NCBI GenBank assembly: GCA_016712635.1
Contig: JADJQS010000006.1
Location: 511,216-575,215, forward strand
Direction of reading: 5' to 3'
DNA: 64,000 nt
Source of the DNA: Gammaproteobacteria bacterium
GTDB taxonomy: Bacteria; Pseudomonadota; Gammaproteobacteria; SZUA-140
Position numbers and translations under genes: made by a program
The notes under the pieces: generated by a model
Databases searched by the model: none
Told to the model about the DNA's origin: nothing
The model's input: the letters and a program-made list of their open reading frames with translations, nothing else
Shown: piece by piece, positions 3-49,540 of the stretch
Position numbering within the stretch: the first letter of the stretch is position 1
How the letters are laid out: each line of letters opens with the position of its first letter

Positions 3-1046
3 ATGCACGGCATGGCGATCCCGCCCACGCTGAAGGCGGTCGGCCGCGCCGGCGCCGGGGTGAACAATATCCCGGTGGCCGACATGAGCAAGCTCGGCAT
101 CCCGGTGTTCAACGCCCCGGGTGCGAACGCCAACGCCGTGAAAGAGCTGGTGGTCGCGGGCATGCTGCTCGCCTGCCGCAACATCTGCCAGGCGTGGGAT
201 TTCGCGCGCAACCTTGAGGGCGACGACGAATCCATCGGAAAACAGGCCGAGGCGGGCAAAAAGGATTTCGTCGGCTTCGAACTGCCGGGCCGTACCCTGG
301 GCGTGATCGGGCTGGGGGCGATCGGCATCAAGGTTGCCAACGTCGCCATCGACCTCGGCATGCGCGTGATCGGCTACGACCCCAAGATTACCGTACAGAG
401 CGCCTGGCGCCTGTCGTCCGAGGTGCAGCAGGCCGTGAGCCTGGACGACATGCTGTCCAAGGTGGATTTCGTCACCTTCCATGTGCCGCTCACCGACGAG
501 ACCCGCAACATGATCAATGCGGACCGCCTCAAGCGCATGAAGAACGGCGCGGTAATCCTGAATTTCGCGCGCGAAGGCATTGTCGACACCGCCGCGGTGA
601 GTGCTGCGATCGACGCCGGCAGGATCTACGCCTATGTGTGCGACTTTCCGGGTAAACAGCTCAAGAATCACAAGCGCGTGATCGCCCTGCCACATCTCGG
701 CGCCTCCACCGACGAGGCGGAGGAGAACTGTGCCGTCATGGTGGCGGACCAGGTGCGTGACTATCTCGAGAACGGCAATATCTTCAACGCGGTCAACTTC
801 CCCGAGGTGCACATGCCGCGCACCGAGGGCTTCCGCATCGCCATCGCCAACGCCAACGTGCCCAACATGGTCGGCCAGATCTCGACCGCAATGGCGAAGG
901 CGGGGCTGAACATCATCGACCTGCTCAACAAGTCGCGCGGCGAGATCGCCTATACCCTGGCCGATGTGGACCGCAAGATCCCGGCCGAGGTTGTGGAAGG
1001 CATACGCAAGATCGACGGCGTGCTGAATGTGCGGGTGATTGATTAG
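3..1046 (+). CDS. serA: D-3-phosphoglycerate dehydrogenase, 5'-truncated by the window edge. Has a 2-hydroxyacid dehydrogenase NAD-binding GxGxxG region and a C-terminal ACT domain.
   Basis: ORF track translation: GVIGLGAIGIKVA NAD motif, catalytic region, C-terminal ACT-like tail. The stop TAG is immediately followed by a repeat. Confidence 0.75.
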   Translation: MHGMAIPPTLKAVGRAGAGVNNIPVADMSKLGIPVFNAPGANANAVKELVVAGMLLACRNICQAWDFARNLEGDDESIGKQAEAGKKDFVGFELPGRTLGVIGLGAIGIKVANVAIDLGMRVIGYDPKITVQSAWRLSSEVQQAVSLDDMLSKVDFVTFHVPLTDETRNMINADRLKRMKNGAVILNFAREGIVDTAAVSAAIDAGRIYAYVCDFPGKQLKNHKRVIALPHLGASTDEAEENCAVMVADQVRDYLENGNIFNAVNFPEVHMPRTEGFRIAIANANVPNMVGQISTAMAKAGLNIIDLLNKSRGEIAYTLADVDRKIPAEVVEGIRKIDGVLNVRVID

Positions 1047-1165
1047 TGAGGAGAGAGGCGTGAGGAGTGAGGCGTAAGAGAATAAGATGTAATCATCCTG
1101 GCGAGGGGAGCTTCCCTGATTCCAGGTTTTTCGCGCCTAGCACCTCACCCCTCACGCCTCACGTT
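1047..1165. repeat. Heptamer-arm palindromic element copy A. Left arm GTGAGG(A/C) repeats, loop of about 60 nt, right arm CCTCAC repeats.
   Basis: gtgaggagagaggcgtgaggagtgaggcg ... cacctcacccctcacgcctcacg read directly. Starts 1 nt after the serA stop. Confidence 0.8.
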
Positions 1166-3400: not shown

Positions 3401-4297
3401 ATGTCCCCTGACGCGCCAACCAGACGGCTGACCATCATCGGCGTCGGCCTGATCGGCGGATCGCTGGCGCGGGCGCTCAGGCGCGCATTCCCCGGCACCG
3501 AGATCATCGGCTCCGGGCGCCAGTTGCCCAACCTGCGGCGTGCGCTGGAGCTCGGCGTCATCGACCGCCACGAGACCGATCCGGCGCGCGCGGTAGAAGG
3601 AGCGGATCTGGTCGTGATTGCCGTACCGGTCGGGGCGATCGAATCCGTATTCGCCGCGATCGACGGGCATCTCGCGGCGGACGCGGTCATCACCGATGTC
3701 GGCAGTACGAAAGGCAATGTGGTCAGCTCTGCGCGGCGACGGCTCGGCGATCACCTGGCCGACTTCGTTCCCGGGCACCCGATCGCGGGCACGGAGCGCA
3801 GCGGCGTCGAGGCCTCGTTCGCCGAGCTGTTTCACGGCTGCCGGGTGATCCTGACGCCGCTCTCCGAGACGCGCCGCGCGGCGGTCGAACGCGTGCGCGC
3901 CGTATGGGAATGCGCCGGTGCGCGCGTGACCGAGATGGACGTGCGGCATCACGACGAGGTCCTGGCCGCCACCAGCCATCTGCCGCACCTGCTGGCCTAT
4001 ACGCTGGTCGACACCCTGGCGCGCATGGACGACAGCGAGGAGATCTTCGATTATGCCGCCGGCGGCTTCCGCGACTTCACGCGGATCGCCTCGTCGGACC
4101 CGGTGCTGTGGCGCGACATCTGCCTGGCCAATCGTGAGGCGATGCTCGGCATACTCCAGCGCTTCAGCGCAGACCTTGCCGGCATAGCCGAGGCCGTGCG
4201 CCGCGCCGACGGCGATCAACTGATGAAGGTGTTCGCGCACGCGAAGGAAGTGCGGGACCGGTTTTCCAAGAAAGGAACAGTGAGGAGTGAGGAGTGA
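3401..4297 (+). CDS. tyrA: Prephenate / cyclohexadienyl dehydrogenase.
   Basis: IIGVGLIGGSLARAL Rossmann motif and PDH domain. The stop lies within the repeat (..VRSEE*). Confidence 0.85.
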   Translation: MSPDAPTRRLTIIGVGLIGGSLARALRRAFPGTEIIGSGRQLPNLRRALELGVIDRHETDPARAVEGADLVVIAVPVGAIESVFAAIDGHLAADAVITDVGSTKGNVVSSARRRLGDHLADFVPGHPIAGTERSGVEASFAELFHGCRVILTPLSETRRAAVERVRAVWECAGARVTEMDVRHHDEVLAATSHLPHLLAYTLVDTLARMDDSEEIFDYAAGGFRDFTRIASSDPVLWRDICLANREAMLGILQRFSADLAGIAEAVRRADGDQLMKVFAHAKEVRDRFSKKGTVRSEE

Positions 4298-4378
4298 AGT
4301 GTGAGGCGCATAATATGGTGAGTGATATTGAGCATATTTCCTGTGTCGCCTCACTCCTCACGCCTAACGCCTCACCAA
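4280..4378. repeat. Heptamer-arm element copy B between tyrA and aroA.
   Basis: agtgaggagtgaggagtgaagtgtgaggcg ... gcctcactcctcacgcctaacgcctcacc. Supplies the tyrA stop codon. Confidence 0.8.
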
Positions 4379-4385
4379 TGCTGCG

Positions 4386-5762
4386 ATGACCACGAAAGAA
4401 CACATCTTCGATATCAGCCCCGGCGGCCGTCTAACCGGCGACATCCGCGTCCCCGGCGACAAATCCATCTCGCACCGCTCCATCATGTTCGGTTCGCTGG
4501 CGGAGGGCGTGACCGAAGTGGAAGGATTCCTCGAGGGCGAGGACAGCCTGGCGACCCTGGCGGCGTTTCGCCGCATGGGGGTCGTCATCGACGGGCCCGA
4601 ACGGGGCAGGGTCACCATTCACGGCGTCGGCCTGCGCGGCCTGCGGGCGCCCGATGGCCCGCTCGATCTAGGCAACTCCGGCACATCGATGCGTCTCATG
4701 TCTGGCCTGCTCATCGCGCAAGCTTTCGACACGGAACTGACCGGCGACGCCTCGCTGTCACGCCGGCCGATGCGCCGTGTGACGCAGCCGCTGGCATCGA
4801 TGGGGGCGCGCATCGAGACCGGGGATTCGGGTACGCCACCGCTGCGGATCCGTGGCGGATCCAGGCTGCACGGAGTGCGTTATGACATGCCGGTGGCGAG
4901 CGCCCAGGTCAAGTCAGCGCTGCTGCTTGCCGGACTCTATGCCGAAGGGGAGACCTGCGTGACCGAGCCCGCGCCGACGCGCGACCATACCGAACGCATG
5001 CTCACCGCCTTCGGCTATCTGGTCACGCGCCACCACAACACGGTCTGTGTGAAAGGGGGAGGTAGACTCAATCCGACCCGCATCGAGATCCCGGCGGACA
5101 TATCCTCGGCGGCATTCTTTATGGTCGGCGCCGCGATCGCGCCGGATTCTGACGTGACGCTGACAGGCGTCGGCATCAACCCGACACGCATCGGGGTCAT
5201 CAATATCCTGCAGCAGATGGGCGCGCGGATCGAGTTGATCGACAAACGCATGTACGGCGGCGAACCGGTGGCCGACCTGCGCGTGCGCACGAGCGCCCTC
5301 AAGGGGATCGAGATCCCGCTTGAACAGGTCCCGCTGGCGATCGACGAATTTCCCGCCCTCTTCATCGCCGCGGCCTGCGCCGAAGGGCGGACGGTCCTGG
5401 CCGGCGCGGAGGAACTGCGCGTCAAGGAGAGCGACCGCATCCAGGTCATGGCTGACGGGCTGCAGCTGCTGGGCATTGATGCGGAACCGACACCGGACGG
5501 GATCATTATTCACGGAAAGGGCGGAGCCGATGCCAGGGGGACGGATGTAAAATCTGTCCCCGAGGATGAAGCGGTGTTTTCCGGCGGCGAGATCCAGAGC
5601 CACGGCGACCACCGCATCGCCATGGCCTTCGCCATAGCCGCACTGCGCGCCTCGAGTCCGATCCGCGTCCGTGACTGCAAGAATGTCGATACCTCGTTCC
5701 CGGAGGTTGTGGAGTTGGCAAGGGGGGCAGAGCTGGGGGTACGTATGAGGGGTGAGGCGTGA
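4386..5762 (+). CDS. aroA: 3-phosphoshikimate 1-carboxyvinyltransferase (EPSP synthase). At 458 aa it is longer than typical; it contains a hairpin-derived internal insertion and a repeat-derived C-terminal tail.
   Basis: Conserved LGNSGTSMRL, RPMRR and HGDHRIAMAFA motifs. An internal GGGGACGGAT..ATCTGTCCCC hairpin sits at about 5535-5561 in frame. The tail ..VRMRGEA* is encoded by the repeat. Confidence 0.9.
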   Translation: MTTKEHIFDISPGGRLTGDIRVPGDKSISHRSIMFGSLAEGVTEVEGFLEGEDSLATLAAFRRMGVVIDGPERGRVTIHGVGLRGLRAPDGPLDLGNSGTSMRLMSGLLIAQAFDTELTGDASLSRRPMRRVTQPLASMGARIETGDSGTPPLRIRGGSRLHGVRYDMPVASAQVKSALLLAGLYAEGETCVTEPAPTRDHTERMLTAFGYLVTRHHNTVCVKGGGRLNPTRIEIPADISSAAFFMVGAAIAPDSDVTLTGVGINPTRIGVINILQQMGARIELIDKRMYGGEPVADLRVRTSALKGIEIPLEQVPLAIDEFPALFIAAACAEGRTVLAGAEELRVKESDRIQVMADGLQLLGIDAEPTPDGIIIHGKGGADARGTDVKSVPEDEAVFSGGEIQSHGDHRIAMAFAIAALRASSPIRVRDCKNVDTSFPEVVELARGAELGVRMRGEA

Positions 5763-5855
5763 GGAGTGAGGAGAAAGAGTACGTCGAGTGGATTCAGCCT
5801 TCTGCCAATCAGATTCCGGTTTTTCGCCTCACGCCTACCCCTCACGCTTCACCTG
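5745..5855. repeat. Heptamer-arm element copy C between aroA and cmk.
   Basis: atgaggggtgaggcgtgaggagtgagg ... cgcctcacgcctacccctcacgcttcacc. Confidence 0.8.
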
Positions 5856-12706: not shown

Positions 12707-12858
12707 GCGCGTGATATGGCGGAGGAACAACGTGGGGGGGCACTTGATACCCTGGAAAAGCCTAATTAGAGCCTGCCCTCGCCTTGCCAATGATTGCGTC
12801 ACATACAGTTCACACAGCCACGAACGCCGATAATAGCTTCCTCTGGTAAGATAAGCTC

Positions 12859-14388
12859 ATGATCATCCAACCGGTCATCCTGTCAGGCGGCTCGGGTACC
12901 CGTCTGTGGCCGCTGTCGCGGGAACATTATCCCAAGCAGTTACTGGCCCCTGTCAGCGACCTGACCCTGCTGCAGTCCACTGTCAACCGCCTGGATCACC
13001 TTGAGGCGATGCAGGATGTCCGGATCGCCGCCCCGCTGGTCATCTGCAACGAGGAACACCGTTTTCTGGTGGCCGAGCAATTACGCCAACTGGGTAAGCC
13101 GCCTGGCCAGATCCTGCTCGAGCCGGTCGGACGGAATACCGCGCCGGCGGCCACCCTGGCGGCCCTGCATGCCGGGGACAGGGGCGCCGTGCTGTTGATC
13201 ATGCCGGCCGACCACCTGATACGCGACGAGGCGGCCTTTAGCCGGGCTGTAATCATTGGTGCGCGGCTGGCTTCGGCTGGCCAGGTCGTCACCTTCGGTA
13301 TCCTGCCGACACGCGCCGAGACCGGTTATGGCTACATCCACAAGGGCGCTGCCCTTGCGGGTGAGGCGTCAGGCGCGAGGCGTGAAGCGGTAGGGAAGGG
13401 AGCACTTTCACCTGACACCTCTCGCCTGACGCCTCACCTCATAGAACAGTTCGTTGAAAAGCCGGATGCCGCCACGGCGCAATCCTATCTCGACTCCGGA
13501 GAATATCTCTGGAACAGCGGCATCTTCATGGTGCGCGCCGCGGTGTGGCTGGAAGCGATCATGCGCCACCGCCCGGACATTTATTCCGCTGCGGAGCAGG
13601 CGTACACGAGCGGCAAGCAGGACGGAGACTTCTACCGCGTGGACAAGAAACTGTTCGCCACGTGCCCCAGCGACTCCATCGACTACGCCGTCATGGAAAA
13701 GCTCACCGCCTCCATCTCCTCACCCCTCACGCCTGACGCCTCACCGATAACCGCGGCGGTGATCCCGCTGGATGCCGGCTGGTCGGACGTCGGCGCCTGG
13801 TCCAGCCTGTGGGAGGTCTCGCCGCAGGACGCCGACGGCAATATCCTGCGTGGCGACGTCATCGCTGAAGACACTCGCAATTCCCTCCTGTACGCCGAGC
13901 ACCGCCTGCTCGCCGGCGTAGGCCTTGATAACATTATTGCGATCGAGACCGCCGACGCCATCCTGGTCGTGCACAAGGACAAGGCGCAGAACGTGAAGGA
14001 TATCGTCGCCCACCTGAAGAAGCAGGGGCGCAGCGAGCACCAGATCCACCGCCGCGTACATCGTCCATGGGGCAGCTACGAAGGCATTGACAAGGGGGAA
14101 CGTTTCCAGGTCAAGCGTATCACGGTCAAGCCGGGTGCTTCGCTCTCCCTGCAGATGCACCACCATCGCGCCGAGCACTGGATTGTCGTGAAGGGGACCG
14201 CCCGCGTCGTGCGCGGGGACGATGAATTCCTGCTCAGTGAAAACGAGTCCACCTATATCCCGATCGGGGTCACCCACCGCCTGGAGAATCCGGGAACGCT
14301 CCCGCTCGAACTGATCGAGGTTCAGTCGGGATCATATCTTGGGGAAGACGATATCGTCAGGTTCGAGGATCACTACGGAAGGAAGTGA
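12859..14388 (+). CDS. manC: Bifunctional mannose-1-phosphate guanylyltransferase / mannose-6-phosphate isomerase (ManC/CpsB type). Carries two in-frame repeat-derived insertions.
   Basis: N-terminal nucleotidyltransferase (ILSGGSGTRLWPLS) and C-terminal cupin (QMHHHRAEHWIVV). 509 aa versus about 480 typical. Confidence 0.9.
   Translation: MIIQPVILSGGSGTRLWPLSREHYPKQLLAPVSDLTLLQSTVNRLDHLEAMQDVRIAAPLVICNEEHRFLVAEQLRQLGKPPGQILLEPVGRNTAPAATLAALHAGDRGAVLLIMPADHLIRDEAAFSRAVIIGARLASAGQVVTFGILPTRAETGYGYIHKGAALAGEASGARREAVGKGALSPDTSRLTPHLIEQFVEKPDAATAQSYLDSGEYLWNSGIFMVRAAVWLEAIMRHRPDIYSAAEQAYTSGKQDGDFYRVDKKLFATCPSDSIDYAVMEKLTASISSPLTPDASPITAAVIPLDAGWSDVGAWSSLWEVSPQDADGNILRGDVIAEDTRNSLLYAEHRLLAGVGLDNIIAIETADAILVVHKDKAQNVKDIVAHLKKQGRSEHQIHRRVHRPWGSYEGIDKGERFQVKRITVKPGASLSLQMHHHRAEHWIVVKGTARVVRGDDEFLLSENESTYIPIGVTHRLENPGTLPLELIEVQSGSYLGEDDIVRFEDHYGRK
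13360..13440 (+). repeat. Complete heptamer-arm element inserted in frame inside manC (about 81 nt, encodes GEASGARREAVGKGALSPDTSRLTPHL).
   Basis: ggtgaggcgtcaggcgcgaggcgtgaagcg..cctgacacctctcgcctgacgcctcacctc. TGA triplets of the left arm are mutated or out of frame. Confidence 0.75.
13727..13746 (+). repeat. Right-arm (CCTCAC) fragment in frame inside manC (encodes SSPLTPDASP).
   Basis: tcctcacccctcacgcctgacgcctcacc. The corresponding segment is absent from typical ManC between the MEK and VIPLDAGWSD blocks. Confidence 0.65.
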
Positions 14389-14566
14389 GGCGTGAGGGGG
14401 CAGGTGTGAGGCGAAAATACTAACTATGGGAGGTCTGATTAATTCGTCATGCCCGCGCAGGCGGGCATCCAGGTCCTTGAATTACTGGTTTCCCGCTTTC
14501 GCGGGAATGACAACCAGGTAATTATTCAGGTTTCCCTAACGCCTAACACCTAACGCCTCACCAACA
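14385..14566. repeat. Composite element between manC and gmd. Heptamer-arm element (arms at 14385-14418 and 14535-14566) with a CCCGC double-hairpin element nested in its loop (14446-14511).
   Basis: agtgaggcgtgagggggcaggtgtgaggcg ... gtcatgcccgcgcaggcgggcat..ttcccgctttcgcgggaatgac ... cctaacgcctaacacctaacgcctcacc. Confidence 0.8.
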
Positions 14567-14578
14567 AAGAGGTTAGCC

Positions 14579-15664
14579 ATGTCAAAAACAGCCTTAATCA
14601 CCGGCATCACCGGCCAGGACGGGGCCTATCTGGCGGAATTTCTGCTGAAGAAGGGCTATGTCGTGCACGGGATCAAGCGGCGCACTTCGCTGTTCAACAC
14701 CGACCGCATCGACCATCTGTATCAGGATCCGCACGTCGACAACCGCCGGTTCATCCTGCACTACGGCGACATGACGGATTCGAGCAGCCTGATCCGGATC
14801 GTGCAGGAGGTGCAACCGGACGAGATCTACAACCTGGCTGCGCAAAGCCACGTCGCGGTGTCATTCGAGGAGCCGGAGTACACGGCGGATTCCGACGCCC
14901 TGGGGGCTCTGCGTCTGCTCGAGGCGATCCGGATCCTCGGCCTGGAGAAGAAGACCCGCTTCTACCAGGCCTCGACCTCCGAATTGTACGGACTGGTGCA
15001 GGAAGTGCCCCAGAGGGAGACGACGCCATTTTATCCGCGCTCGCCCTATGCCGTGGCAAAGCTCTACGCCTACTGGATCACGGTCAATTACCGCGAGGCC
15101 TATGGCATCTATGCCTGCAACGGAATCCTGTTCAATCATGAAAGCCCGATCCGGGGCGAGACCTTCGTCACGCGCAAGATCACGCGCGCGCTGGCGCGCA
15201 TCAAGCTTGGCCTGCTCGACTGCCTGTATCTCGGCAACCTGGACGCGCGCCGCGACTGGGGGCACGCACGCGATTACGTCGAGGCGCAGTGGCTGATGTT
15301 GCAACAGAAATCAGCGGAAGATTTCGTCATCGCAAGCGGAATTCAGTACAGTGTGCGCGATTTCGTCGACGCCGCCGCGAGTGAACTCGGGATGCGCATC
15401 TCATGGAAGGGACAGGGTGCCGAGGAGAAGGGCTATGATGCAGCCGGCCGCTGCATCGTGGCAGTCGATCCGCGCTATTTCCGTCCGACCGAAGTGGAAA
15501 CCCTGCTCGGTGATCCGAGCAAGGCCAGGGATAAGCTGGGCTGGACGCCGCGCACCAGCTTCAAGGAACTCGTCGCTGAAATGGTGCGCGAAGACCTCAA
15601 GGTAGCCGAACGGGATGAACTGTGCAGGAGAGAAGGGTTCAGGACGTTTGATTACCATGAATAA
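14579..15664 (+). CDS. gmd: GDP-mannose 4,6-dehydratase.
   Basis: [29 protein letters not shown]. 361 aa. Confidence 0.95.
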
Positions 15665-15667
15665 AAT

Positions 15668-15703
15668 ATGTGAAGTGTGAGGAGTGAGGTGTTAGGCGTA
15701 TGA
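15668..15703. repeat. Left arm of the heptamer element that carries the four-helix-bundle gene.
   Basis: tgtgaagtgtgaggagtgaggtgttaggcg immediately after the gmd stop. Confidence 0.7.
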
Positions 15704-15733
15704 GCTTACAGAATTTCCACGGAGGGAAATCCA

Positions 15734-16096
15734 ATGAGCAGAATACATCACGGACTCTTGGCGTGGCAGCACGCTATGAAGTTTGTAAAGGATATTTATG
15801 AGGTCACATCGGCATTCCCAAAATGTGAAATGTACGGGCTGACAAGTCAAATGAGGCGTGCCGCGGTTAGCGTGCCATCCAACATCGCGGAAGGTGCCGG
15901 AAGGGCCAGTTTCAGGGAGTTTGGGCAATTTCTCACGATAGCTCGTGGCTCTCTGTGCGAGCTCGAGACCCAGGTTGTCCTGGCTAAAGAGTTAGGCTAT
16001 ATCGCAGAGAACGATGATTTACTATCCAAAATGGAAAAACTGTTCGCTTTACTGGGTGGACTGATCAATTCTATCGGGAAACGATATCAGCAATGA
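15734..16096 (+). CDS. Four-helix-bundle protein (23S rRNA intervening-sequence protein / Avd-like family). Low-GC cargo inside the repeat element.
   Basis: 120 aa. [46 protein letters not shown] are hallmark motifs. Local GC is visibly lower (about 47%) than the neighbours. Confidence 0.8.
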
Positions 16097-17088
16097 CGCT
16101 TCACGCCTCACACCTAACACCTGACCTCTCTATCTACGTTGCCGGCCATCGCGGCCTGGTCGGTTCCGCCCTGATGCGTCGATTTCAAGCAGCAGGATAC
16201 AGCAATCTGGTTACACGGACGCATCGTGAGCTGGATCTCACCGACCAGGCGGCGGTGCGCGAATTTTTCCGGACGGAGAAACCGCGGCGGGTGCTCCTGG
16301 CCGCGGCGAAGGTCGGCGGGATACTGGCCAACGACACCTATCCGGCGGAATTCATCCGCGAGAACCTTGCCATCCAGACCAACGTAATTCACGAGGCCTG
16401 GCGCTCCGGCGTCGAGCGGCTCCTGTTTCTGGGATCTTCCTGCATCTATCCGCGCGAGTGCCCGCAGCCGATGAAGGAAGAGTATCTGCTTACCGGCCCG
16501 CTGGAGAAGACCAACCGCGCCTACGCGGTGGCGAAGATCGCCGGCATCGAGATGTGCCGCTCCTACAATCAGCAGTACGGAACCCGTTACCTTGCCGTGA
16601 TGCCGACCAACCTGTACGGTCCGGGTGACAACTTCGACCTGCAGAACTCCCATGTGCTGCCCGCACTGATACGCAAGATGCACGAGGCAAAGCTCGCCGG
16701 ATCACCCGCGGTCACGGTATGGGGAACAGGGACGCCGCGCCGGGAATTTCTGCACAGCGACGACCTCGCCGACGCCTGCCTGTTCCTGCTGAGCCTGCCG
16801 GAAGAGCAATACGCCTCACTCCTTACGCCTCACGCCTCACCGCCGTTGATCAACGTCGGATGCGGTCAGGACGTCACCATCCGCGAGCTGGCCGAGACCG
16901 CGCAGCGTGTCGTCGGATACCCGGGCCGCCTGGAGTTCGACACCAGCAAGCCTGACGGGACGCCGAGAAAGCTGCTGGACGTATCGCGCCTGAGCGCGCT
17001 TGGCTGGACGCCGCGCATCGGCCTGGCCGACGGAATCGCGCAGGTATATCGCTGGTACCTGGATCAACCCGCCTCGCAGGCGCATTGA
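16093..17088 (+). CDS. fcl: GDP-L-fucose synthase (GDP-4-keto-6-deoxymannose 3,5-epimerase/4-reductase). The true start is probably near 16129. Contains one in-frame right-arm insertion at 16813-16841.
   Basis: [14 protein letters not shown], the YPAEFI motif and the C-terminal domain. The first ~12 codons of the ORF-track model ([12 protein letters not shown]) are repeat-encoded. The internal [10 protein letters not shown] insert is absent from E. coli Fcl. Confidence 0.85.
16098..16128. repeat. Right arm (CCTCAC repeats) closing the element around the four-helix-bundle gene. Overlaps the annotated 5' end of fcl.
   Basis: cgcttcacgcctcacacctaacacctgacctc. Confidence 0.7.
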
Positions 17089-17139
17089 TCCGGAGGCTGG
17101 AATCTGTTTCAAAATTGATGATAGGCGGAAACAGCAGGC

Positions 17140-17222
17140 GTCGTCCCCGCGAAAGCGGGGATCCAGTGGCTTTAAGCCGATGAAAAGCAGAAACACTGGA
17201 TTCCCGCTTTCGCGGGAATGAC
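17140..17222. repeat. CCCGC double-hairpin inverted element, copy 2, between fcl and gmhB.
   Basis: gtcgtccccgcgaaagcggggatccag ... tggattcccgctttcgcgggaatgac. The same termini and architecture as 14446-14511. Confidence 0.75.
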
Positions 17223-17276
17223 GCATTTATCTTTCATTGCAAACATGCATTTCCAATTTTGAGATAGGTTCCAGTT

Positions 17277-17822
17277 ATGGCAGGCAGGGCGCTGATACTC
17301 GATCGGGACGGCGTGGTCAATATCGACAGGGACTATGTCCACAAGATCGAAGATTTCGAGTTCGTCGACGGCCTGTTCGAGCTGTGCCGCATGGCGGCCG
17401 GTCAGGGCTACCGCATCATCATCATCACCAACCAGTCCGGAATTGGACGCGGCTATTACACCGAGGATGATTTTCACCTCCTCACCGGCTGGATGAAGGC
17501 CAGATTCGAGGAGGAGGGTATTACGGTGGCGCAGGTCTATTACTGCCCGTATCATCCCGTGCACGGCATCGGGAAGTACAAGCAGGACTCCTACGACCGC
17601 AAACCCAACCCCGGCATGATCATCAAGGCGGCGCAGGACTTCGATTTGGACCTTTCAAACTGTATACTCGTCGGAGACCGCGAATCCGATATGAAGGCCG
17701 CACAGACCGCGGGTGTCGGCCATAAGGTCCTGTACCGTCCGGAAGGCGGCATTGATGCCCCGACGCGGGCGGACTACGTCGTCAACGAGCTGAACACCGT
17801 GCTCGAATTGGTCACGGATTGA
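17277..17822 (+). CDS. gmhB: D-glycero-beta-D-manno-heptose-1,7-bisphosphate 7-phosphatase (HAD family).
   Basis: [13 protein letters not shown] motif [23 protein letters not shown]. Confidence 0.85.
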
Positions 17823-17945
17823 GCATGCGAGGGTGCATGTTGTGCCGGGCAGACCAGGCACAACGGGCGTCATGATCCCGGGTGAGCGTTACGGCGTTCA
17901 CCACAGGCTACGGCATATTGTAGAAAGGCGTTGATTCACTGAACC

Positions 17946-18518
17946 ATGAGTGACCGTATCGTAAAAGCGCTGGAAGACCACGAGAACGTCCTTGCGGCCG
18001 TGCGGGATAACCTCGTCGCCGATATCGAGCAGGTGGCGCAATGCCTGATCGACTGCCTCGGCCGGGGCCACACCATCTTCTGGTGCGGTAACGGCGGAAG
18101 CGCGGCGGACGCACAACACATCGCCGCGGAACTTGTCGGCCGCTTCGAGCGCGAACGGAAAGCGCTCGCCTCCATCGCGCTGTCCACTGATACCTCAATC
18201 CTGACCAGCGTGGGAAACGACTATGGCTTCGACAGCATCTTCAAGCGCCAGGTCGAAGCACTGGTTCGTCGGGGTGATGTGCTCGTGGGCCTGTCCACCT
18301 CGGGCAACAGCCCGAACGTGGTGCGCGCCATCGAACAGGCGAACGGCCAGGGCGCCACCACGATCGGCGTGCTGGGCAGAGACGGCGGCCGGATAATAAA
18401 ACTTTGCCGCCTGTCGATAGTTGTGCCGGCGGAAAACACCGCGCGCATCCAGGAGATGCACGGGCTAATCGGGCACATACTGTGCGATCTGATTGAAAAG
18501 AGCAGGACTGAGGACTGA
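17946..18518 (+). CDS. gmhA: Phosphoheptose isomerase (SIS domain).
   Basis: IFWCGNGGSAADAQHIAAE, LSTSGNSPNV. The stop lies in the repeat (..RTED*). Confidence 0.85.
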   Translation: MSDRIVKALEDHENVLAAVRDNLVADIEQVAQCLIDCLGRGHTIFWCGNGGSAADAQHIAAELVGRFERERKALASIALSTDTSILTSVGNDYGFDSIFKRQVEALVRRGDVLVGLSTSGNSPNVVRAIEQANGQGATTIGVLGRDGGRIIKLCRLSIVVPAENTARIQEMHGLIGHILCDLIEKSRTED

Positions 18519-18630
18519 GTGCTCAGGACTGAGTAAAAGACAAAATCTACCCGAGCCAGATAAGCTAAGTTTAAATAGAAATAATGTTTATGGGTTTTCA
18601 CTCAGTCCTAAGACCTCAGTCCTCAATCCT
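18506..18630. repeat. Variant heptamer-arm element with ACTGAGG / CCTCAGT arms between gmhA and cysC.
   Basis: ggactgaggactgagtgctcaggactgag ... cactcagtcctaagacctcagtcctcaatcc. Confidence 0.75.
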
Positions 18631-18648
18631 ATTATTTAGGAGTTCATC

Positions 18649-19260
18649 ATGAGCGGTAATAAGAGTACCAACGTCGTCTGGCACCAGGCCACCATCGACC
18701 GTCAGAAGCGCGAAGCCATGAACGGGCACAAGAGCGCGATCCTGTGGTTCACAGGGTTGTCCGGTTCGGGAAAATCCACGCTGGCGCATGCGGTGGAAGA
18801 AAAGCTCCACGGACTGAAGTGCCGCACCTTCGTGCTCGACGGCGACAACATCCGCCACGGACTGTGCGGTGACCTTGGTTTCTCCGATGAGGACCGCGTG
18901 GAGAACATCCGCCGCATCGGCGAAGTCTCCAAGCTGTTCATAGAGGCCGGCGTGATCGCCATGACCGCGTTCATCTCGCCGTTCCGTGCCGACCGCGAGC
19001 GCGTGCGCAGCCTGGTCATGCATGGCGACTTCATCGAGATCTACTGCAAGGCCTCGCTCGAAGTGTGCGAGCAGCGTGACGTGAAGGGTCTGTACAAGAA
19101 GGCGAGGGCAGGGGAGATCAAGGCCTTTACCGGAATCTCCTCGCCGTATGAGGCGCCCGACAAGCCCGAGATCATCGTCGAGACCGGGGCCGATTCGCTG
19201 GACAAGTGCGCCGACCAGGTGCTCGCCTTCCTGCGCGAGCGCGGCATTCTGAAGGGCTGA
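18649..19260 (+). CDS. cysC: Adenylyl-sulfate (APS) kinase.
   Basis: [14 protein letters not shown]-loop, [10 protein letters not shown], 203 aa. Stand-alone; no cysN/cysD in the window. Confidence 0.9.
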
Positions 19261-19269
19261 CACAGGATT

Positions 19270-19348
19270 GGGGACAGATTTTTATCTGTCCCCCGATATC
19301 GCAATGATGCCAGTACGCCTCACACCTAACGCCTCACACCTCACGCTC
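19270..19348. repeat. GGGGACAGAT hairpin (19270-19294) followed by a right-arm-only CCTCAC repeat block (19315-19348).
   Basis: ggggacagatttttatctgtcccc ... gcctcacacctaacgcctcacacctcacgctcg. Confidence 0.75.
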
Positions 19349-19353
19349 GAGCC

Positions 19354-21120
19354 ATGAGCCTTGAAGCCTGGTTTACCGTTGCCGTCATCGGCCTCTGCCT
19401 CGGGCTGCTGATACACGGGCGCACGGCGCCGGACATCGTCATGATGGCCGGCCTGACCCTTCTGCTGGTGTCCGGCATACTGACGCCAACGGAAGCTCTT
19501 TCCGGTTTGTCGAATGAGGGCATGGTCACGGTGGGCATCATGTTCGTCATCGTGACCGGCCTGCGCGATACCGGCGCCATCGCCTGGATCGTGCAGCACC
19601 TGCTCGGTGTGCCGCGCTCGACCGCCCACGCCCAGATGCGCCTGATGACCCCGGTCGCCGCCATGAGCGCCTTCCTCAACAACACTCCGGTGGTCGCGAT
19701 GATGATCCCGGCGGTGCAGGACTGGGCGCGCCGCCACCGGATCTCCGTCTCCAAGCTGATGATCCCGCTGAGCTATGCCACCATCGCCGGCGGCACCTGT
19801 ACCCTGATCGGCACCAGCACGAATCTCGTTGTGAACGGCATGCTGATCAAGGAGACCGGCCACGGACTCAAGATGTTCGAGCTCGCCTGGGTGGGTATCC
19901 CGCTGGTGGTGGTGGTCTTCCTCGGCATCGTCCTGCTTAGCCGCTGGCTGCTGCCAGAGCGCAAGCCGGCCATCAGCCAGTTCGAGGAATCGCGCGGCTA
20001 TACCGTGGAGATGATGGTGGACTCCAGCGGGCCGCTGGTCGGCAAGACAGTGGAGCAGGCCGGCCTGCGCCACCTGCCGGGTCTGTATCTGATCGAGATC
20101 GACCGCGGCGAGCAGGTGCTGCCGGCCGTTTCGCCGCTCGAGCGGCTGCAGGCGAACGACCGGCTGATCTTCGCCGGGGCGGTGGAATCGGTCATCGACC
20201 TGCAGAAGATCCACGGCCTCTCCCCGGCCACCGACCAGATCTTCAAGCTGGGCATGCCACGGCCGGAACGCTGCCTGATCGAGGCGGTGATCTCCAACAG
20301 CGCCCCGCTGGTGGGCAAGAGCATCCGCGAGGGGCGCTTCCGCACCCTCTACAACGCGGCGGTCATCGCCGTCTCGCGCAGCGGCGAGCAGATCAAGGGC
20401 AAGATCGGCGACATCGTGCTGCGTCCGGGCGACACCCTGCTGCTGGAAGGGCACCCGTCCTTTGTTGAGCAGCAGCGCAATTCGCGTGACTTCTATCTGG
20501 TGAGCCGTCTGGCGGGCTCGACCCCGCTCAATCATGACAAGGCGCCGATCGCACTCGCGATCATGACCGCCATGGTGGCCGCCGCCGCCTTCGGCTGGCT
20601 CAGCATGCTGCAGGCGGCGCTGCTGGCCGCCGGCGCGATGTTGATTACCCGCTGTACGCGCGGCAGCAATGCGCGCGCAGCGGTGGACTGGCAGATCCTG
20701 ATCGTGATCGCCGCCTCGCTCGGCATCGGCAAGGCGCTGGAGACCACGGGTGCGGCGCAGGCAATGGCTGACGGTTTCCTGTCCTTCACCGGGGCAGGCC
20801 CGCTGATGGCGCTCTTCGTGGTCTACGTCATGACTGTGCTGTTCACCGAGATCGTGACCAACAATACCGCTGCTGCACTGATGTTTCCCATCGCGCTTGC
20901 GCTCAGCAAATCACTCGATGTGAGCTACATGCCCTTCATCATCACCATCACGGTGGCGGCTTCGATGAGCTTCGCCACTCCGATCGGGTACCAGACCAAC
21001 CTGATGGTGCTGGGTCCGGGCGGTTATCGCTTCACCGACTACATGAAACTTGGTATCCCGCTGACCGTCATGGTCGGGATACTGATTATGCTGATTGTCC
21101 CGCGGGTGTGGGCGTTCTGA
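19354..21120 (+). CDS. SLC13/DASS-family anion permease with two central TrkA-C (RCK_C) domains. Candidate sulfate or dicarboxylate transporter.
   Basis: 588 aa. N- and C-terminal multi-TM halves around two repeated roughly 70-aa TrkA-C-like segments (GKTVEQAGLRHLPGLYLIEIDRGEQ.. and GKSIREGRFRTLYNAAVIAVSRSGEQ..). Confidence 0.7.
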   Translation: MSLEAWFTVAVIGLCLGLLIHGRTAPDIVMMAGLTLLLVSGILTPTEALSGLSNEGMVTVGIMFVIVTGLRDTGAIAWIVQHLLGVPRSTAHAQMRLMTPVAAMSAFLNNTPVVAMMIPAVQDWARRHRISVSKLMIPLSYATIAGGTCTLIGTSTNLVVNGMLIKETGHGLKMFELAWVGIPLVVVVFLGIVLLSRWLLPERKPAISQFEESRGYTVEMMVDSSGPLVGKTVEQAGLRHLPGLYLIEIDRGEQVLPAVSPLERLQANDRLIFAGAVESVIDLQKIHGLSPATDQIFKLGMPRPERCLIEAVISNSAPLVGKSIREGRFRTLYNAAVIAVSRSGEQIKGKIGDIVLRPGDTLLLEGHPSFVEQQRNSRDFYLVSRLAGSTPLNHDKAPIALAIMTAMVAAAAFGWLSMLQAALLAAGAMLITRCTRGSNARAAVDWQILIVIAASLGIGKALETTGAAQAMADGFLSFTGAGPLMALFVVYVMTVLFTEIVTNNTAAALMFPIALALSKSLDVSYMPFIITITVAASMSFATPIGYQTNLMVLGPGGYRFTDYMKLGIPLTVMVGILIMLIVPRVWAF

Positions 21121-43867: not shown

Positions 43868-44536
43868 ATGGTGCTTCCGTATAAGCTTCTCGTGTTCGAC
43901 TGGGATGGGACCTTGATGGATTCGGAGGCGCGCATCGTCAGTTGCCTGTCGATGACCTTATCCGATCTCGCCTTGCCCGCGCTCGGGCGCGATGAACTGC
44001 TCAACGTGATCGGGCTCGGACTGCCGGAGGCGGTTGCCACGCTGCTGCCGGAGGCCGATGCGGGACTGATCCGCCGCTTCATCGATCGTTACCGTTACCA
44101 TTTCCTGTCCGACCATCACGCCGCCGCGGTTTTGTTCCCGGGTGCGAAGGAGACCCTCACCGCGCTCGATCGCCGCGGCTACCTGCTGGCGGTTGCAACC
44201 GGCAAGGGCAGACGGGGGCTGGACCAGTCCCTGGAGGACACCGGCTGCGGCGGCCTGTTCTCGCTCTCGCGTTGCGCGGATGAAACCGCTTCCAAGCCGA
44301 ATCCGCGTATGCTGATCGAGATCATGGATGTGCTCGGCATCGCCCCGGACGAGACCCTGATGATCGGCGATACCGAATATGACATGCAGATGGCGCACAA
44401 TGCGGGCGCGCGCGCGCTGGCGGTGAGCTACGGCGTCCATGCGCGTGAACGCCTGCTCGCCTGCGAACCGCTCGGGTGCCTGGACGTGATCACCGATATA
44501 CTTCCCTGGCTCGAAGGCGTGAGGCGTGAGGCGTGA
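43868..44536 (+). CDS. HAD-superfamily hydrolase (phosphoglycolate-phosphatase-like).
   Basis: LLVFDWDGTLMDS motif I, VATGKGRRG, MIGDTEYDM. The C-terminus (..VRREA*) and stop are contributed by the heptamer array. Confidence 0.7.
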   Translation: MVLPYKLLVFDWDGTLMDSEARIVSCLSMTLSDLALPALGRDELLNVIGLGLPEAVATLLPEADAGLIRRFIDRYRYHFLSDHHAAAVLFPGAKETLTALDRRGYLLAVATGKGRRGLDQSLEDTGCGGLFSLSRCADETASKPNPRMLIEIMDVLGIAPDETLMIGDTEYDMQMAHNAGARALAVSYGVHARERLLACEPLGCLDVITDILPWLEGVRREA

Positions 44537-44722
44537 GGCGTGAGGCGTGAGGCGTGAGGCGTGAGGCGTGAGGCGTGAGGCGTGAGGCGTGAGGCGTGAG
44601 GCGTGAGGCGTGAGGCGACAAGAGTTTGCTCGCCGCATTTTCCTTGTCCAGCACTTTTTTAAATTAGTATTTTTCTTCTTTTACCCCTAACTCCTCATCC
44701 CTCACGCCTAACCGAATACCCT
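44515..44722. repeat. Heptamer element copy K. A pure (GTGAGGC) array of about 14-15 units, a roughly 70-nt AT-rich loop and a CCTCAC right arm, upstream of sppA.
   Basis: gaggcgtgaggcgtgagg... x14 then gacaagagtttgctcgccgcattttccttgtccagcacttttt..ttttacccctaactcctcatccctcacgcctaacc. Confidence 0.85.
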
Positions 44723-44776: not shown

Positions 44777-45784
44777 ATGTCTGACGAGAACAAACAGCAG
44801 GATCCATGGCTGGGTGAGGCGCAGGCGCCGCGCGCAGGTAACGGCAAGCAGGGCGCCGTGGAAGAGACGTGGGCACGCAGCGTGCTGGAAACGCTGGTAC
44901 AGGCTACCCTCAAGGAGCAGCGCAGCGCCCGCCGCTGGGGTGTCTTTTTCAAGCTGATGTTCCTCGGATATCTGTTTCTGATCCTGTACACCTACTGGCC
45001 GGGGAAGCTGGTCGACGAGAGCCTGTCGGGCCGGCATACCGCCCTGATCGACATCAACGGCGTAATCGCCGAGGACCGCGACGCCAGTGCGGACTACATC
45101 GTCGACAGCCTGCGTGAAGCCTTCGACAACAAGCACGCCGCCGCCATCCTGCTGCGTATCAACAGCCCCGGCGGCAGCCCGGTGCAGTCGGGCTATGTCA
45201 ACGACGAGATCGCGCGCCTGCGCGCGCAGCATCCCGACAAGAAGGTGTACGCCGTGATCACCGACATCTGCGCCTCCGGCGGCTATTACATCGCGGCGGG
45301 CGCTGACGAGATCTACGCGGACAAGGCAAGCATCGTGGGCTCCATCGGCGTGCTGATGGACGGCTTCGGTTTCGTGCAGACGCTCGACAAGCTCGGCATC
45401 GAGCGCCGCCTGATCACGGCGGGCGAGAGCAAGGGCTTCCTCGATCCGTTCTCGCCGATGAAACCCGATGACGAACACCATATCCGCACGATGCTGGCGA
45501 ACATACACCAGCAGTTCATCGATACCGTGAAGAAGGGGCGCGGGGACCGCCTCAAGGACGATCCCAGCCTGTTCACCGGGCTGGTGTGGACCGGCGAGGA
45601 AAGCCTCAAGCTCGGCCTGGTCGACGGCCTGGGGAGCCCCAGCTACGTCGCGCGCGAAATCATCGGCGCGGAAGACATCATCGACTACACCTATCAGCCG
45701 CCGTACTTCCAGCGCTTCGCCGAACGCATCGGCGCAGCGGCGGCACAGGGAGTGGCGGGGATGCTGAAGGTGGAACTGAGGTGA
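44777..45784 (+). CDS. sppA: Signal peptide peptidase SppA (36K type, ClpP/crotonase fold).
   Basis: ICASGGYYIAAGADEIYADKASIVGSIGV catalytic Ser region. TM near the N-terminus. The stop TGA lies in the first repeat unit. Confidence 0.85.
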   Translation: MSDENKQQDPWLGEAQAPRAGNGKQGAVEETWARSVLETLVQATLKEQRSARRWGVFFKLMFLGYLFLILYTYWPGKLVDESLSGRHTALIDINGVIAEDRDASADYIVDSLREAFDNKHAAAILLRINSPGGSPVQSGYVNDEIARLRAQHPDKKVYAVITDICASGGYYIAAGADEIYADKASIVGSIGVLMDGFGFVQTLDKLGIERRLITAGESKGFLDPFSPMKPDDEHHIRTMLANIHQQFIDTVKKGRGDRLKDDPSLFTGLVWTGEESLKLGLVDGLGSPSYVAREIIGAEDIIDYTYQPPYFQRFAERIGAAAAQGVAGMLKVELR

Positions 45785-45968
45785 GGCGTGAGGCGTGAGG
45801 CGTGAGGCGTGAGGCGTGAGGCGTGAGGCGTGAGGCGTGAGGCGTGAGGCGTGAGGCGTGAGGCGACAAGAGTTTGCTCGCCGCATTTTCCTTGTCCAGC
45901 ACTTTTTGAATTAGTATTTTTGTTCTTTTACCCCTGACACCTCACCCCTCACGCCTCACGACTCACTC
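45781..45968. repeat. Heptamer element copy L. A (GTGAGGC) array of about 12 units plus the same loop and right arm as copy K, between the convergent 3' ends of sppA and maf.
   Basis: Near-identical loop to copy K (a few substitutions). The array is 2-3 units shorter. The right arm runs into the maf stop. Confidence 0.85.
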
Positions 45969-48503: not shown

Positions 48504-49468
48504 TGTACGCGCGCATCACGGGCACGGGCGGCTATCTGCCCGCCAGGGTGCTGTCCAACGCCGAACTCGAGCGTATGGTCGACACCACCGACCAGTGGAT
48601 CGTCGAGCGCACCGGCATCCGCACGCGTCATATCGCCGCCCATGGCGAGACCACCTGCGACTTGGCCGAGGCCGCGGCGCGCCGTGCGATCGAGGCAGCA
48701 GGCCTCGTGCCCGCCGACATCGACCTCATCATCGTCGCGACCACCACGCCGGACAAGGTGTTTCCCAGCACGGCCTGCCTGCTCCAGCAGCGGCTCGGCA
48801 TCCACGGTCCCGCCGCCTTCGACATCCAGGCCGTGTGCACCGGTTTCGTCTACGCACTCAGCGTGGCCGACAAGTTCATCCGCACCGGCAGCGCGCGCTG
48901 CGCACTGGTCGTCGGCGCTGACACCCTTTCGCGCATCATCGACTGGCAGGACCGGTCCACCTGCGTCCTGTTCGGCGACGGTGCCGGCGCGGTGGTCCTG
49001 GAGGCGGCCGCGGAGCCCGGCATCCTGTCGACGCACCTGCACGCCGATGGCCAGTACCAGGAGATGCTGATGGTTCCCGAAGGCGTCTCGCAGGGTTATG
49101 AAAGCGTGCAGGAAGGCAGCGCATTCATCAAGATGCAGGGCGGCGAGGTATTCAAATTCGCGGTGAACTCCCTGGAACAGCTCGTCGACGAGACGCTGGT
49201 GGCCAACGGAATGCAACGGGACGACATCGACTGGCTGGTCCCGCACCAGGCCAATATCCGCATCATCACCGCCACCGCGCGCAAGCTGAAGATGTCCATG
49301 GAGCGCGTCGTCGTGACCGTGGATACCCATGGCAACACCTCGGCGGCGTCGATACCCCTCGCGCTCGACGTCGCCGTTCGCGACGGCCGCATCAAGCGCG
49401 GCGAGACCCTGCTGTTCGAGGCTGTCGGCGGCGGCTTCACCTGGGGTTCTGCGCTGGTTAAATATTAG
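48503..49468 (+). CDS. fabH: 3-oxoacyl-ACP synthase III.
   Basis: The internal start [13 protein letters not shown] overlaps the plsX stop. The upstream 115 codons of the ORF-track model are spurious. Cys-His-Asn active-site context. Confidence 0.9.
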
Positions 49469-49540
49469 TGAGGCGTGAGGCGAGAGGCGTGAGGGGTAAA
49501 TTCTTTTTTCCGCCTCACACCTCACTCCTGACGCCTCACC
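49467..49540. repeat. Compact heptamer-arm element copy M between fabH and fabD.
   Basis: tagtgaggcgtgaggcgagaggcgtgagg ggtaaattcttttttcc gcctcacacctcactcctgacgcctcacc. Confidence 0.8.

Follow-up and report, generated by a model that had tools for sequence, protein, structure and literature searches.

The gmd-fcl junction carries a four-helix-bundle gene between inverted heptamer arrays

We analyzed a 64,000-nt stretch of a Gammaproteobacteria bacterium contig (JADJQS010000006.1, positions 511,216 to 575,215; here, the window), in which the genes for GDP-mannose 4,6-dehydratase (gmd) and a GDP-fucose-synthase-type epimerase/reductase (fcl) are separated by an insert of 456 bp, arms included. 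The insert holds one short gene, encoding a four-helix-bundle (4HB) protein, between two arrays of tandem 7-nt repeats (heptamers) in inverted orientation (Table 1). An initial annotation made from the letters alone had placed it at 15668-16128, accurate within 3 nt, and had described a GTGAGG left arm and a CCTCAC right arm, where we find four GTGAGGN and four NCCTCAC units. The two arms are 79-81% complementary over 28 nt with 400 nt between them, and they pair in both the minimum-free-energy and the centroid RNA folds of the element. The repeat is strongly enriched: GTGAGGNGTGAGG with at most two mismatches occurs 87 times in the window, versus 5.7 ± 2.3 times in shuffled sequence. The left arm is kept in the counterparts at the same position in three comparison loci (L003, L006, and L096), and the GGAGGG ahead of the 4HB start codon is likewise conserved in counterparts. 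A GTATGAG/GTAAAAG-like motif opens the leader and is found both in counterparts and in the loops of some gene-less copies of the repeat. As first annotated, the G+C content of the 4HB gene (0.485) is lower than that of gmd (0.599) and fcl (0.636), and also lower than that of the whole window (0.580).

Promoter and terminator signals around the insert showed no excess over shuffles. An Rfam scan of positions 12000-20000 (E <= 1) returned no rRNA or other family at its gathering score, only sub-threshold miRNA-like hairpins.

Table 1. Coordinates of the insert, its host genes, and gene-less copies of the repeat in the window
Feature	Position	Strand	Remarks
gmd (GDP-mannose 4,6-dehydratase)	14579..15664	+	PF16363, E 2.6e-156; stop codon 15662-15664; upstream host gene
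Left (5') arm	15670..15697	+	Four tandem heptamers, GTGAAGT GTGAGGA GTGAGGT GTTAGGC; 5 nt past gmd stop
Leader, 36 nt	15698..15733	+	Shine-Dalgarno-like GGAGGG at 15721-15726, 7 nt before ATG
4HB gene	15734..16096	+	120 aa; PF05635/TIGR02436; XCC0516 or "S23p" type
ATGA junction	16093..16096	+	fcl ATG (16093-16095) overlaps 4HB stop TGA (16094-16096)
fcl-type epimerase/reductase (GDP-fucose-synthase type)	16093..17088	+	Downstream host gene; sole canonical start inside element
Right (3') arm	16098..16125	+	Four heptamers, GCTTCAC GCCTCAC ACCTAAC ACCTGAC; in-frame Fcl residues 2-11
Gene-less hairpin	1046..1162		68-nt loop; 5' part of loop resembles L003 4HB leader, p 0.008 uncorrected
Gene-less hairpin	4280..4375		40-nt loop
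Gene-less hairpin	5745..5852		66-nt loop
Complete hairpin within manC reading frame	13361..13437		In frame
Gene-less hairpin, manC-gmd spacer	14385..14561		Loop holds nested unrelated palindromic repeat
Gene-less hairpin	44519..44712		5' arm is 14 perfect GTGAGGC units
Gene-less hairpin	45781..45966		12 perfect units; loop near-identical to that of 44519-44712
Gene-less hairpin	49468..49539		16-nt loop

The encoded protein belongs to the XCC0516 group of four-helix bundles

The 4HB open reading frame (ORF) matched PF05635 (23S_rRNA_IVP; E 7.7e-37; 126.2 bits against a cutoff of 33.8 in a Pfam profile search) and TIGR02436 ("four helix bundle protein"; E 7.8e-37; 125.8 bits against a cutoff of 24), which upholds the first assignment of the 120-aa product to the 4HB family named for the 23S rRNA intervening sequence (IVS). 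PF05635 was the sole family matched; no transposase domain or HUH/Y1 signature was hit, and no anti-phage defense family among the PADLOC models matched at E <= 0.01. An AlphaFold model of the monomer, built from 35 homologs (pLDDT 95.9), consists of four long helices. Its nearest structure is XCC0516 (2GSC; TM-score 0.92; 50% identity), followed by BT_0352 (2RLD; TM 0.79). More distantly, the fold resembles Avd, the accessory protein of diversity-generating retroelements (DGRs; 4DWL and 8UBE; TM 0.70-0.76; 9-14% identity), and a sequence search of the PDB reached 2GSC only (8e-31), not bAvd. The R...S...N..E motif is found in the window protein, and the key residues are invariant in the homolog alignment. 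The 2GSC and 2RLD crystal structures contain five chains each (pentamers), and the window protein probably forms a pentameric ring as well, by analogy with the 50%-identical XCC0516. Its best homologs in a collection of 5.8 billion proteins are just 64-69% identical.

The same junction is empty in most relatives and occupied in some

A metagenome scan with Gmd gave 80 related loci, 50 of them with an fcl-type gene downstream. The junction is empty in 40 of these 50, where 14-82 nt separate the gmd stop codon from the IY(V/I)AGH core of Fcl, compared to ~470 nt in the window. The insertion into gmd-fcl proposed in the initial annotation is thus borne out by the spacing in relatives. All three 4HB genes found among the 80 gmd loci directly follow gmd. 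The same junction holds a low-GC gene (0.44-0.46) with window-like arms and a stop/start overlap in L003/L008 (metagenome-assembled genome [MAG] SJ243), L006, L096, and L194; the window Gmd is 93% identical to its L003 counterpart at the protein level. The initial annotation had reasoned that a native gene would be indicated by relatives whose copy lacks arms and is similar in GC; the counterparts are the opposite, armed and low in GC. Across phyla, the gmd/fcl junction is occupied repeatedly (L015, L108, L124, L011, L012, L193, L194, and L196), in the reversed order fcl-4HB-gmd in L015 and by more distant 4HB genes with other heptamers after gmd in L108 and L124. The presence of counterparts in diverged genomes indicates that the cassette at this junction is old.

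Two occupied junctions differ from the rest. The L096 counterpart (L096:3597-4001) has no canonical start before helix 1, although 122 codons are open and its last heptamer gives the closing TGA; this copy may be decaying. At L147:1136-2124, a metagenome contig, the gmd-fcl junction holds a RAYT-like ORF with flanking palindrome pairs of the repetitive extragenic palindromic (REP) type, which, as read from the sequence, is a different selfish element at the same spot.

The start codon of fcl overlaps the stop codon of the 4HB gene

No canonical start precedes the Fcl core other than the ATG of the ATGA overlap (Table 1). The AATGA junction is invariant in 4/4 aligned counterparts, every one of which reads through its right arm into fcl. 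A stop/start overlap with the downstream gene is also present in L011, L012, L013, L031, L049, L056, L108, L191, L194, and L196. Overlap together with read-through of the right arm recurs in unrelated operons: in metF after ahcY (Zoogloea and Pseudoxanthomonas), in an rmlD-like gene (Halomonas), in thiI after pfkB, and in a Chloroflexota gene. In L196 and L193, a GTG overlaps the 4HB stop, yet fcl has an additional ATG of its own past the right arm. Because the fcl start overlaps the 4HB stop, the operon probably stays functional. Therefore, the earlier description of the element as splitting the operon was right as to the insertion into gmd-fcl but overstated its consequence. With moderate confidence, we suggest from the arrangement of the genes that the cassette is cotranscribed with the operon and translationally coupled to fcl; such coupling would make the insertion nearly nonpolar.

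Inverted heptamer arrays flank the gene family across phyla

We fetched 80 genomic loci of relatives (47-68% identity, many phyla) and matched the 120-nt upstream flank of each ORF against its reverse-complemented 120-nt downstream flank, using same-spacing controls. About 42 of 77 loci scored z >= 4, and the matching segments were nearly always tandem heptamers. The heptamer itself differs by lineage (AGTAGTC, AGTTCTC, AGTAGCG, AGTTTCG, GTGAAAC, GTGACGN, CAGTTGC, GGGAATN, and others). Tandem Repeats Finder detected 3.18 period-7 arrays per kb in the 150-nt flanks versus 0.128 per kb elsewhere in the same loci, a 25-fold enrichment beside this gene family. When genomes, plasmids, and viral contigs were consolidated, 81 of 97 loci carried an array in at least one flank. 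Independent replicates agreed: an array was scored at 5/6 loci on cyanobacterial plasmids, the sixth having weaker runs of heptamers that can be seen by eye, and all 15 IMG/VR loci showed arrays by eye (11 of the 12 nonredundant ones also scored).

The geometry of these loci is uniform. Arms mostly have 4-5 units; the median distance is 32 nt from the end of the left arm to the start codon and 8 nt from the stop to the beginning of the right arm. Of the 56 loci with both sides typed, 50 have arms complementary at 6/7 or more positions, and arms agree at 6.14/7 positions within a locus versus 3.89 between loci. Handedness is constant, with (A)GT on the 5' arm and ACT on the 3' arm (AGT-only, 33; ACT-only, 5; p = 4e-6). 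The 4HB gene lies below its surroundings in GC in 76/77 loci, by a mean of 7 points, and both neighbors are codirectional, with short spacers, in 41/73 loci. The idea that the right arm acts as a "frame adaptor," selected to be stop-free, was rejected as a general rule (44/65 stop-free versus 52 expected); a stop-free right arm holds for GTGAGG-type arms and a few others.

Individual loci illustrate the range of settings. In Xanthomonas arboricola (L028:3960-4410), GGGAATC-type units flank the XCC0516 ortholog (E 8.6e-70 to 2GSC), which separates accB from accC and whose stop belongs to an ATGA. The true start of this ortholog may be further downstream than annotated, because the N terminus MENRESAK is encoded by GGGAATC-type heptamers. 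Plasmids of Picosynechococcus (L171) and Nostoc edaphicum (L173) carry heptamer-armed 4HB genes located between cas10/cmr2 and cmr3, and a further one lies on the opposite strand between the genes for the two ribonucleotide reductase subunits.

Heptamer type covaries with protein similarity

Protein identity and heptamer identity are correlated across loci (Spearman 0.24; permutation p <= 0.0005): pairs with at least 70% protein identity share 6.06/7 heptamer positions, and those with 40-50% identity share 3.7. The correlation holds inside Acidobacteriota alone (p = 0.0002). The proteins nearest to that of the window carry GTGAGG/GTAAGG-type arms, although their hosts are Gamma-, Beta-, and Deltaproteobacteria and a Syntrophomonadaceae MAG (a Firmicute), and they occupy different operons (gmd-fcl, pfkB-thiI, and ahcY-metF). 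Since protein and heptamer covary across hosts and operons, capture of a wandering gene by resident hairpins is disfavored, and movement of one unit between contexts is favored. The loci of Zoogloea (L013) and Pseudoxanthomonas (L056) share the order ahcY-4HB-metF with different heptamers (GAGGAGT versus GTGAGCG); in both, metF begins at an ATGA overlap and reads through the right arm.

Taken together, the arrays flanking relatives in 81/97 loci, the fixed geometry, and the heptamer that tracks protein similarity argue that arms and gene form one unit. We judge it probable, with room for doubt, that the insert is a complete copy of a widespread "heptamer-armed 4HB cassette" and not a passenger gene in an unrelated repeat. 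The unit comprises 4-5 heptamers, a leader of ~30 nt with a ribosome-binding site (RBS), a PF05635 ORF of ~120 aa with GC below that of its host, and a stop codon abutting 4-5 reverse-complement heptamers.

The window copy shows an old and probably recombinant history

The window protein is 64-66% identical to its positional counterparts, no closer than to other members of the subfamily. Synonymous sites of the window ORF are saturated (pS 0.89 and 0.94 versus L008 and L006; gmd/fcl in the same pairs, 0.42-0.51), so that selection is not measurable for this copy; between the counterparts L008 and L006, the ORF is under purifying selection (dN/dS 0.125). Nucleotide identity to L008 forms a valley over the cassette, with shoulders within the final ~300 nt of gmd and the initial ~200 nt of fcl. 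The cassette region is of deeper ancestry than the remainder of gmd and fcl. Given the saturated pS, the identity valley, and the equidistance from syntenic and nonsyntenic relatives, we rejected the idea that the ORF and its positional counterparts are simple vertical orthologs. The sequences are most simply read as an allele replacement, in which homologous recombination brought in DNA from a divergent donor whose junction already held a cassette, and not as a new autonomous insertion. In L008, the arrays within manC and fcl are at orthologous positions, from which it follows that the region carried heptamer repeats before the lineages split; the manC array has 7 versus 4 units, a difference of 21 nt and therefore in frame.

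Two comparisons bearing on transfer of the unit were set aside. L003 and L004 are ~63% identical upstream and identical from mid-gmd through fcl, reflecting a recombination breakpoint in gmd or a chimeric contig, and the pair is uninformative for cassette-specific transfer because the identity runs from mid-gmd onward. In Nostoc PCC 7120, the homology between the copies on two plasmids extends from the ATG to ~45 nt beyond the right arm, but an ISL3 element abuts the left side, which leaves the pair ambiguous as evidence that the unit is mobile.

Gene-less hairpins and other repeats in the window

The initial annotation had noted copies of the same element with loops only. In our count, the heptamer forms eight complete hairpins that lack a gene, their loops spanning 16 to ~135 nt, as well as three solo 3' arms (Table 1). 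All window hairpins have the G-rich arm 5' and the C-rich arm 3', with a modal four units. In the manC-gmd spacer, the hairpin element supplies the manC stop, as the TGA (14385-14388) is formed by its first heptamer, GTGAGG. The hairpins at 44519-44712 and 45781-45966, with loops of 67-68 nt, look like a recent duplication followed by slippage expansion. Arrays also lie in frame within coding genes, in manC (13361-13437 and 13717-13744) and in fcl (16813-16840, a solo 3' arm), giving peptides that include SPDTSRLTPH, SPLTPDASP, and LLTPHASP.

A second heptamer type, GAGGACT/AGTCCTC, forms a hairpin at 18503-18630 between the SIS-domain and APS kinase genes, a junction at which L008 has CCATCAC x4. 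The start of its loop resembles the L003 4HB leader (p 0.006 uncorrected). Loop-leader homology was considered as proof that gene-less hairpins are deletion derivatives, and we take it as suggestive only; derivation by loss of the ORF is thus a suggestion from sequence similarity. By analogy with REP sequences and RAYT genes, the gene-less hairpins look like companions or derivatives of the cassette. Unrelated palindromic repeats of the GTCATTCCCGC...GCGGGAATGAC type, with VIPAKAGIQ-like peptides, occur at 14430-14520, in the loop of the manC-gmd hairpin, and at 17100-17240, after fcl; their Rfam match to WsnRNA46 is weak, at 36.7 bits where the gathering score is 65.3.

Relation to known elements

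ORF-bearing rRNA IVSs have been known since about 1990-93, and structures of S23p/XCC0516 proteins have been available since 2006. The 23S IVSs of Leptospira, Coxiella burnetii, and Brucella carry an ORF of the same family inside terminal inverted repeats and, like the window cassette, sit in a transcribed unit whose function is preserved. In Coxiella, 3-4 tandem GACAGAT heptamers, strain-variable in number, lie on the 5' side of the S23p ORF, and RNase III cleaves within a 28-bp terminal stem (PMC4990558). That stem is four heptamers long, matching the 28-nt arms of the window. The systems differ in that the window host is a protein-coding operon, gmd-fcl, instead of a 23S/16S rRNA helix, and in that the window ORF has a good RBS and is under purifying selection between its counterparts L008 and L006, in contrast to Coxiella, where the ORF is in decay and seems not to be translated. 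In addition, the reading frame of fcl runs through the window right arm, and an RNase III cut would harm fcl. IVSs have long been suspected to be mobile with the ORF serving mobility, an idea of Ralph and McClelland (as cited in PMC4990558), and 23S_rRNA_IVP genes have been noted in the literature inside cas operons and at several sites in rRNA genes of the candidate phyla radiation. These parallels suggest that the window cassette and the ORF-bearing 23S rRNA IVS are elements of one kind, the former residing in an mRNA operon.

REP/REPIN sequences with their RAYT genes offer a second parallel: a single-copy gene is flanked by an inverted repeat that is also dispersed without the gene, mostly between codirectional genes; the repeat type covaries with the protein clade, and target-site duplications are lacking. 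Unlike RAYTs, the 4HB protein has 120 aa and no HUH or tyrosine nuclease motif, its repeats are tandem heptamer arrays instead of single imperfect palindromes, and mobility of the cassette is putative.

Bacterial heptamer arrays have also been described in their own right. STRR sequences, tandem 7-nt repeats of heterocystous cyanobacteria, date from 1990. Xanthomonas GGGAATC arrays strongly prefer four units, form 70-75 convergent pairs, lie mostly between co-oriented ORFs, and have been read as G-quadruplexes; GGGGA(C/T)T arrays are known in Nostoc (PMC4692102). For the TAACTGA heptamers of Beggiatoaceae, cyanobacteria, and Bacteroidetes, a role in regulating translation was proposed (PMC4679880). 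Like the window arms, these arrays are intergenic tandem 7-nt units, about four preferred, between co-oriented ORFs and often in convergent pairs. GGGAATC-type units flank the XCC0516 ortholog, and arrays flank 4HB genes on Nostocales plasmids. In contrast to these published readings, our data tie the arrays to one particular family of genes. The two array papers (PMC4692102 and PMC4679880) do not mention S23p or four-helix-bundle genes, and full-text searches, subscription-only articles excluded, found no literature linking heptamer arrays to the PF05635 family in general, the exception being the single Coxiella locus. The family-wide tie to lineage-specific inverted heptamer arrays therefore appears to be unreported.

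Two further systems bear on a nucleic-acid-reading role. Avd shares the fold and superfamily and forms a pentameric 4HB barrel within the DGR ribonucleoprotein reverse transcriptase (RT) complex (8UBE and 8UB7), which provides a precedent for nucleic-acid-associated function; it differs in that no RT ORF was found in the window and in its 9-14% identity to the window protein, beyond the reach of sequence search. Omega (ParB) of plasmid pSM19035 is a small oligomer that reads contiguous 7-bp parS heptads, direct or inverted. It serves as an analogy only, since its ribbon-helix-helix fold and its functions in partition and repression are unrelated.

Alternative explanations

The best-surviving alternative, although we regard it as unlikely, is a host gene tied to GDP-fucose/nucleotide-sugar operons, for example a regulator of gmd/fcl expression, with the arrays as operon punctuation. 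The gmd-fcl junction is home to most of the closest relatives (L003, L006, L096, L011, L012, L193, L194, and L196), the gene recurs near gmd in L015 (fcl-4HB-gmd) and, as distant 4HBs, in L108 and L124, and the ORF is under purifying selection. However, a dedicated host gene is hard to reconcile with the 40/50 related gmd-fcl operons that lack it, with the same subfamily and the same arms in pfkB-thiI and ahcY-metF, or with relatives in accB-accC, in cmr2-cmr3, between ribonucleotide reductase genes and, per the literature, in rRNA genes; foreign GC in 76/77 loci likewise counts against it.

Slightly less likely still is the passenger capture suggested by the initial annotation, which called the gene cargo: an independent hairpin repeat family, into one loop of which a 4HB gene landed or was caught. 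In its favor, gene-less hairpins with variable loops outnumber the gene-bearing copy in the window by ~11 to 1, and solo arms exist; L108 and L124 have complete small hairpins beside the gene, so arms and gene can be separable. Capture does not account for an association seen in many phyla with different heptamers (81/97 loci), for the conserved spacing in which the right arm abuts the stop codon, or for a heptamer type that follows the protein clade across hosts and operons. The gene-bearing progenitor, which the same annotation had offered as its alternative, is favored over capture.

A third possibility, improbable in our estimate, is that there is no functional link: slippage-prone simple repeats would gather around any low-GC insertion, with the inversion as a by-product. 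Unit numbers do slip (7 versus 4 at an orthologous site; 12-14 perfect units elsewhere), the arms lack element-specific complementarity, and heptameric repeats are generally overrepresented in bacteria (PMC4692102). This account leaves unexplained the 25-fold enrichment beside one gene family, the arm complementarity of at least 6/7 (50/56 loci) with constant handedness, and the modal 4-5 units at fixed positions relative to start and stop.

A DGR relic, that is, an Avd gene left after loss of the RT and the template/variable repeats, is very improbable: PF05635 includes Avd-like proteins, the window protein weakly matched the PHROG entry "Avd protein of DGR" (E 3.3e-06), and its fold resembles that of Avd (4DWL and 8UBE; TM 0.70-0.76), but no ORF with RT motifs was found in the 64 kb (the two YxDD matches are sugar epimerases), sugar genes neighbor the 4HB gene in the window and in every counterpart, and sequence search reaches the free-standing XCC0516 (8e-31) instead of bAvd (Avd identity 9-14%), so the link to Avd and DGRs drawn earlier is not supported. 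An inverted-repeat search of 15500-16300 showed short heptamer-related pairs and a tandem scan of the window short-period arrays only, neither search being aimed at a dispersed template/variable pair of ~100 nt. The insert does not fit a transposon of the miniature inverted-repeat or insertion-sequence type, as the arms are heptamer arrays, no duplication is visible, and the only ORF is the 4HB gene without a transposase domain.

Points against the cassette reading

Several observations weigh against the reading of the insert as a cassette whose protein and arrays work together. The survey covered relatives at >= 35-47% identity, not all of PF05635, and 16/97 loci had no array. The correlation between protein and heptamer could stem partly from host relatedness. 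The borders (AAATAT on the left and CTCTCT on the right) show no target-site duplication, and recent movement was not seen, arrays lying at orthologous places in a diverged genome. The similarity between hairpin loops and the L003 leader is weak (p 0.006-0.008 before correction for 27 tests). As for the protein, its net charge is only ~+2 by our own count, no known catalytic motif is present, and its binding to the arrays is a prediction. The arms of one element match each other (0.819) no better than they match those of other elements (0.816), so these values do not demonstrate a selected stem. Compensatory pairing between the arms was sought, and none was found beyond the shared consensus; by-eye comparison of orthologs revealed no clean covariation. 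The arrays could equally serve as rows of binding sites. Finally, a cut in the right arm would sever the fcl ATG from the body of the gene, so RNase III processing is not the default fate of the transcript.

A model for the cassette

In the mechanism we propose, the cassette would be transcribed with the gmd-fcl operon and the 4HB ORF translated from its own RBS. Terminating ribosomes would reinitiate on fcl, so that insertion would be nearly cost-free. The 4HB protein would recognize heptamer arrays, both its own arms and the scattered gene-less copies, as a RAYT does REP sequences. When untranslated, the arms could pair in RNA and be cut by RNase III as in rRNA IVSs; if such cutting occurs here, it would be a switch acting only when the cassette is not translated. 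By analogy with these systems, we put somewhat below even chances on the protein reading the arrays, on a RAYT/REP-like tie to the gene-less arrays, and on the arms being able to act as an RNase III stem.

More tentatively still, PF05635 proteins may be the missing partners of heptamer arrays at large (STRR, GGGAATC, and TAACTGA-type arrays and rRNA IVS stems), forming a ubiquitous and hitherto unrecognized two-component element that is near-costless in operons and rRNA genes, with overlap coupling in the GTGAGG-type subfamily and some others. Each subunit of the ring might then read one unit, following an (A)GT-plus-four code, and the protein might maintain, spread, or regulate the gene-less arrays.

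Implications

The locus is an IVS-type 4HB cassette in an mRNA operon, real and well defined. If 4HB proteins and arrays are indeed partners, the element inserts into essential operons (accB-accC, gmd-fcl, ahcY-metF, and cmr2-cmr3) while keeping them working, and a portable stop/start overlap would be what preserves the operons in this subfamily and at some other loci. For annotation, start codons and N-terminal extensions of genes downstream of such cassettes are element derived, and heptamer insertions that keep the frame are found within genes as well. Three puzzles would also become one, namely, the function of S23p/XCC0516 proteins, the ORF-bearing rRNA IVSs, and the excess of 7-nt repeats in bacteria, for which the published array cases, Xanthomonas GGGAATC and Beggiatoa TAACTGA, both date from 2015. 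The family-wide association with arrays makes several of these old questions testable.

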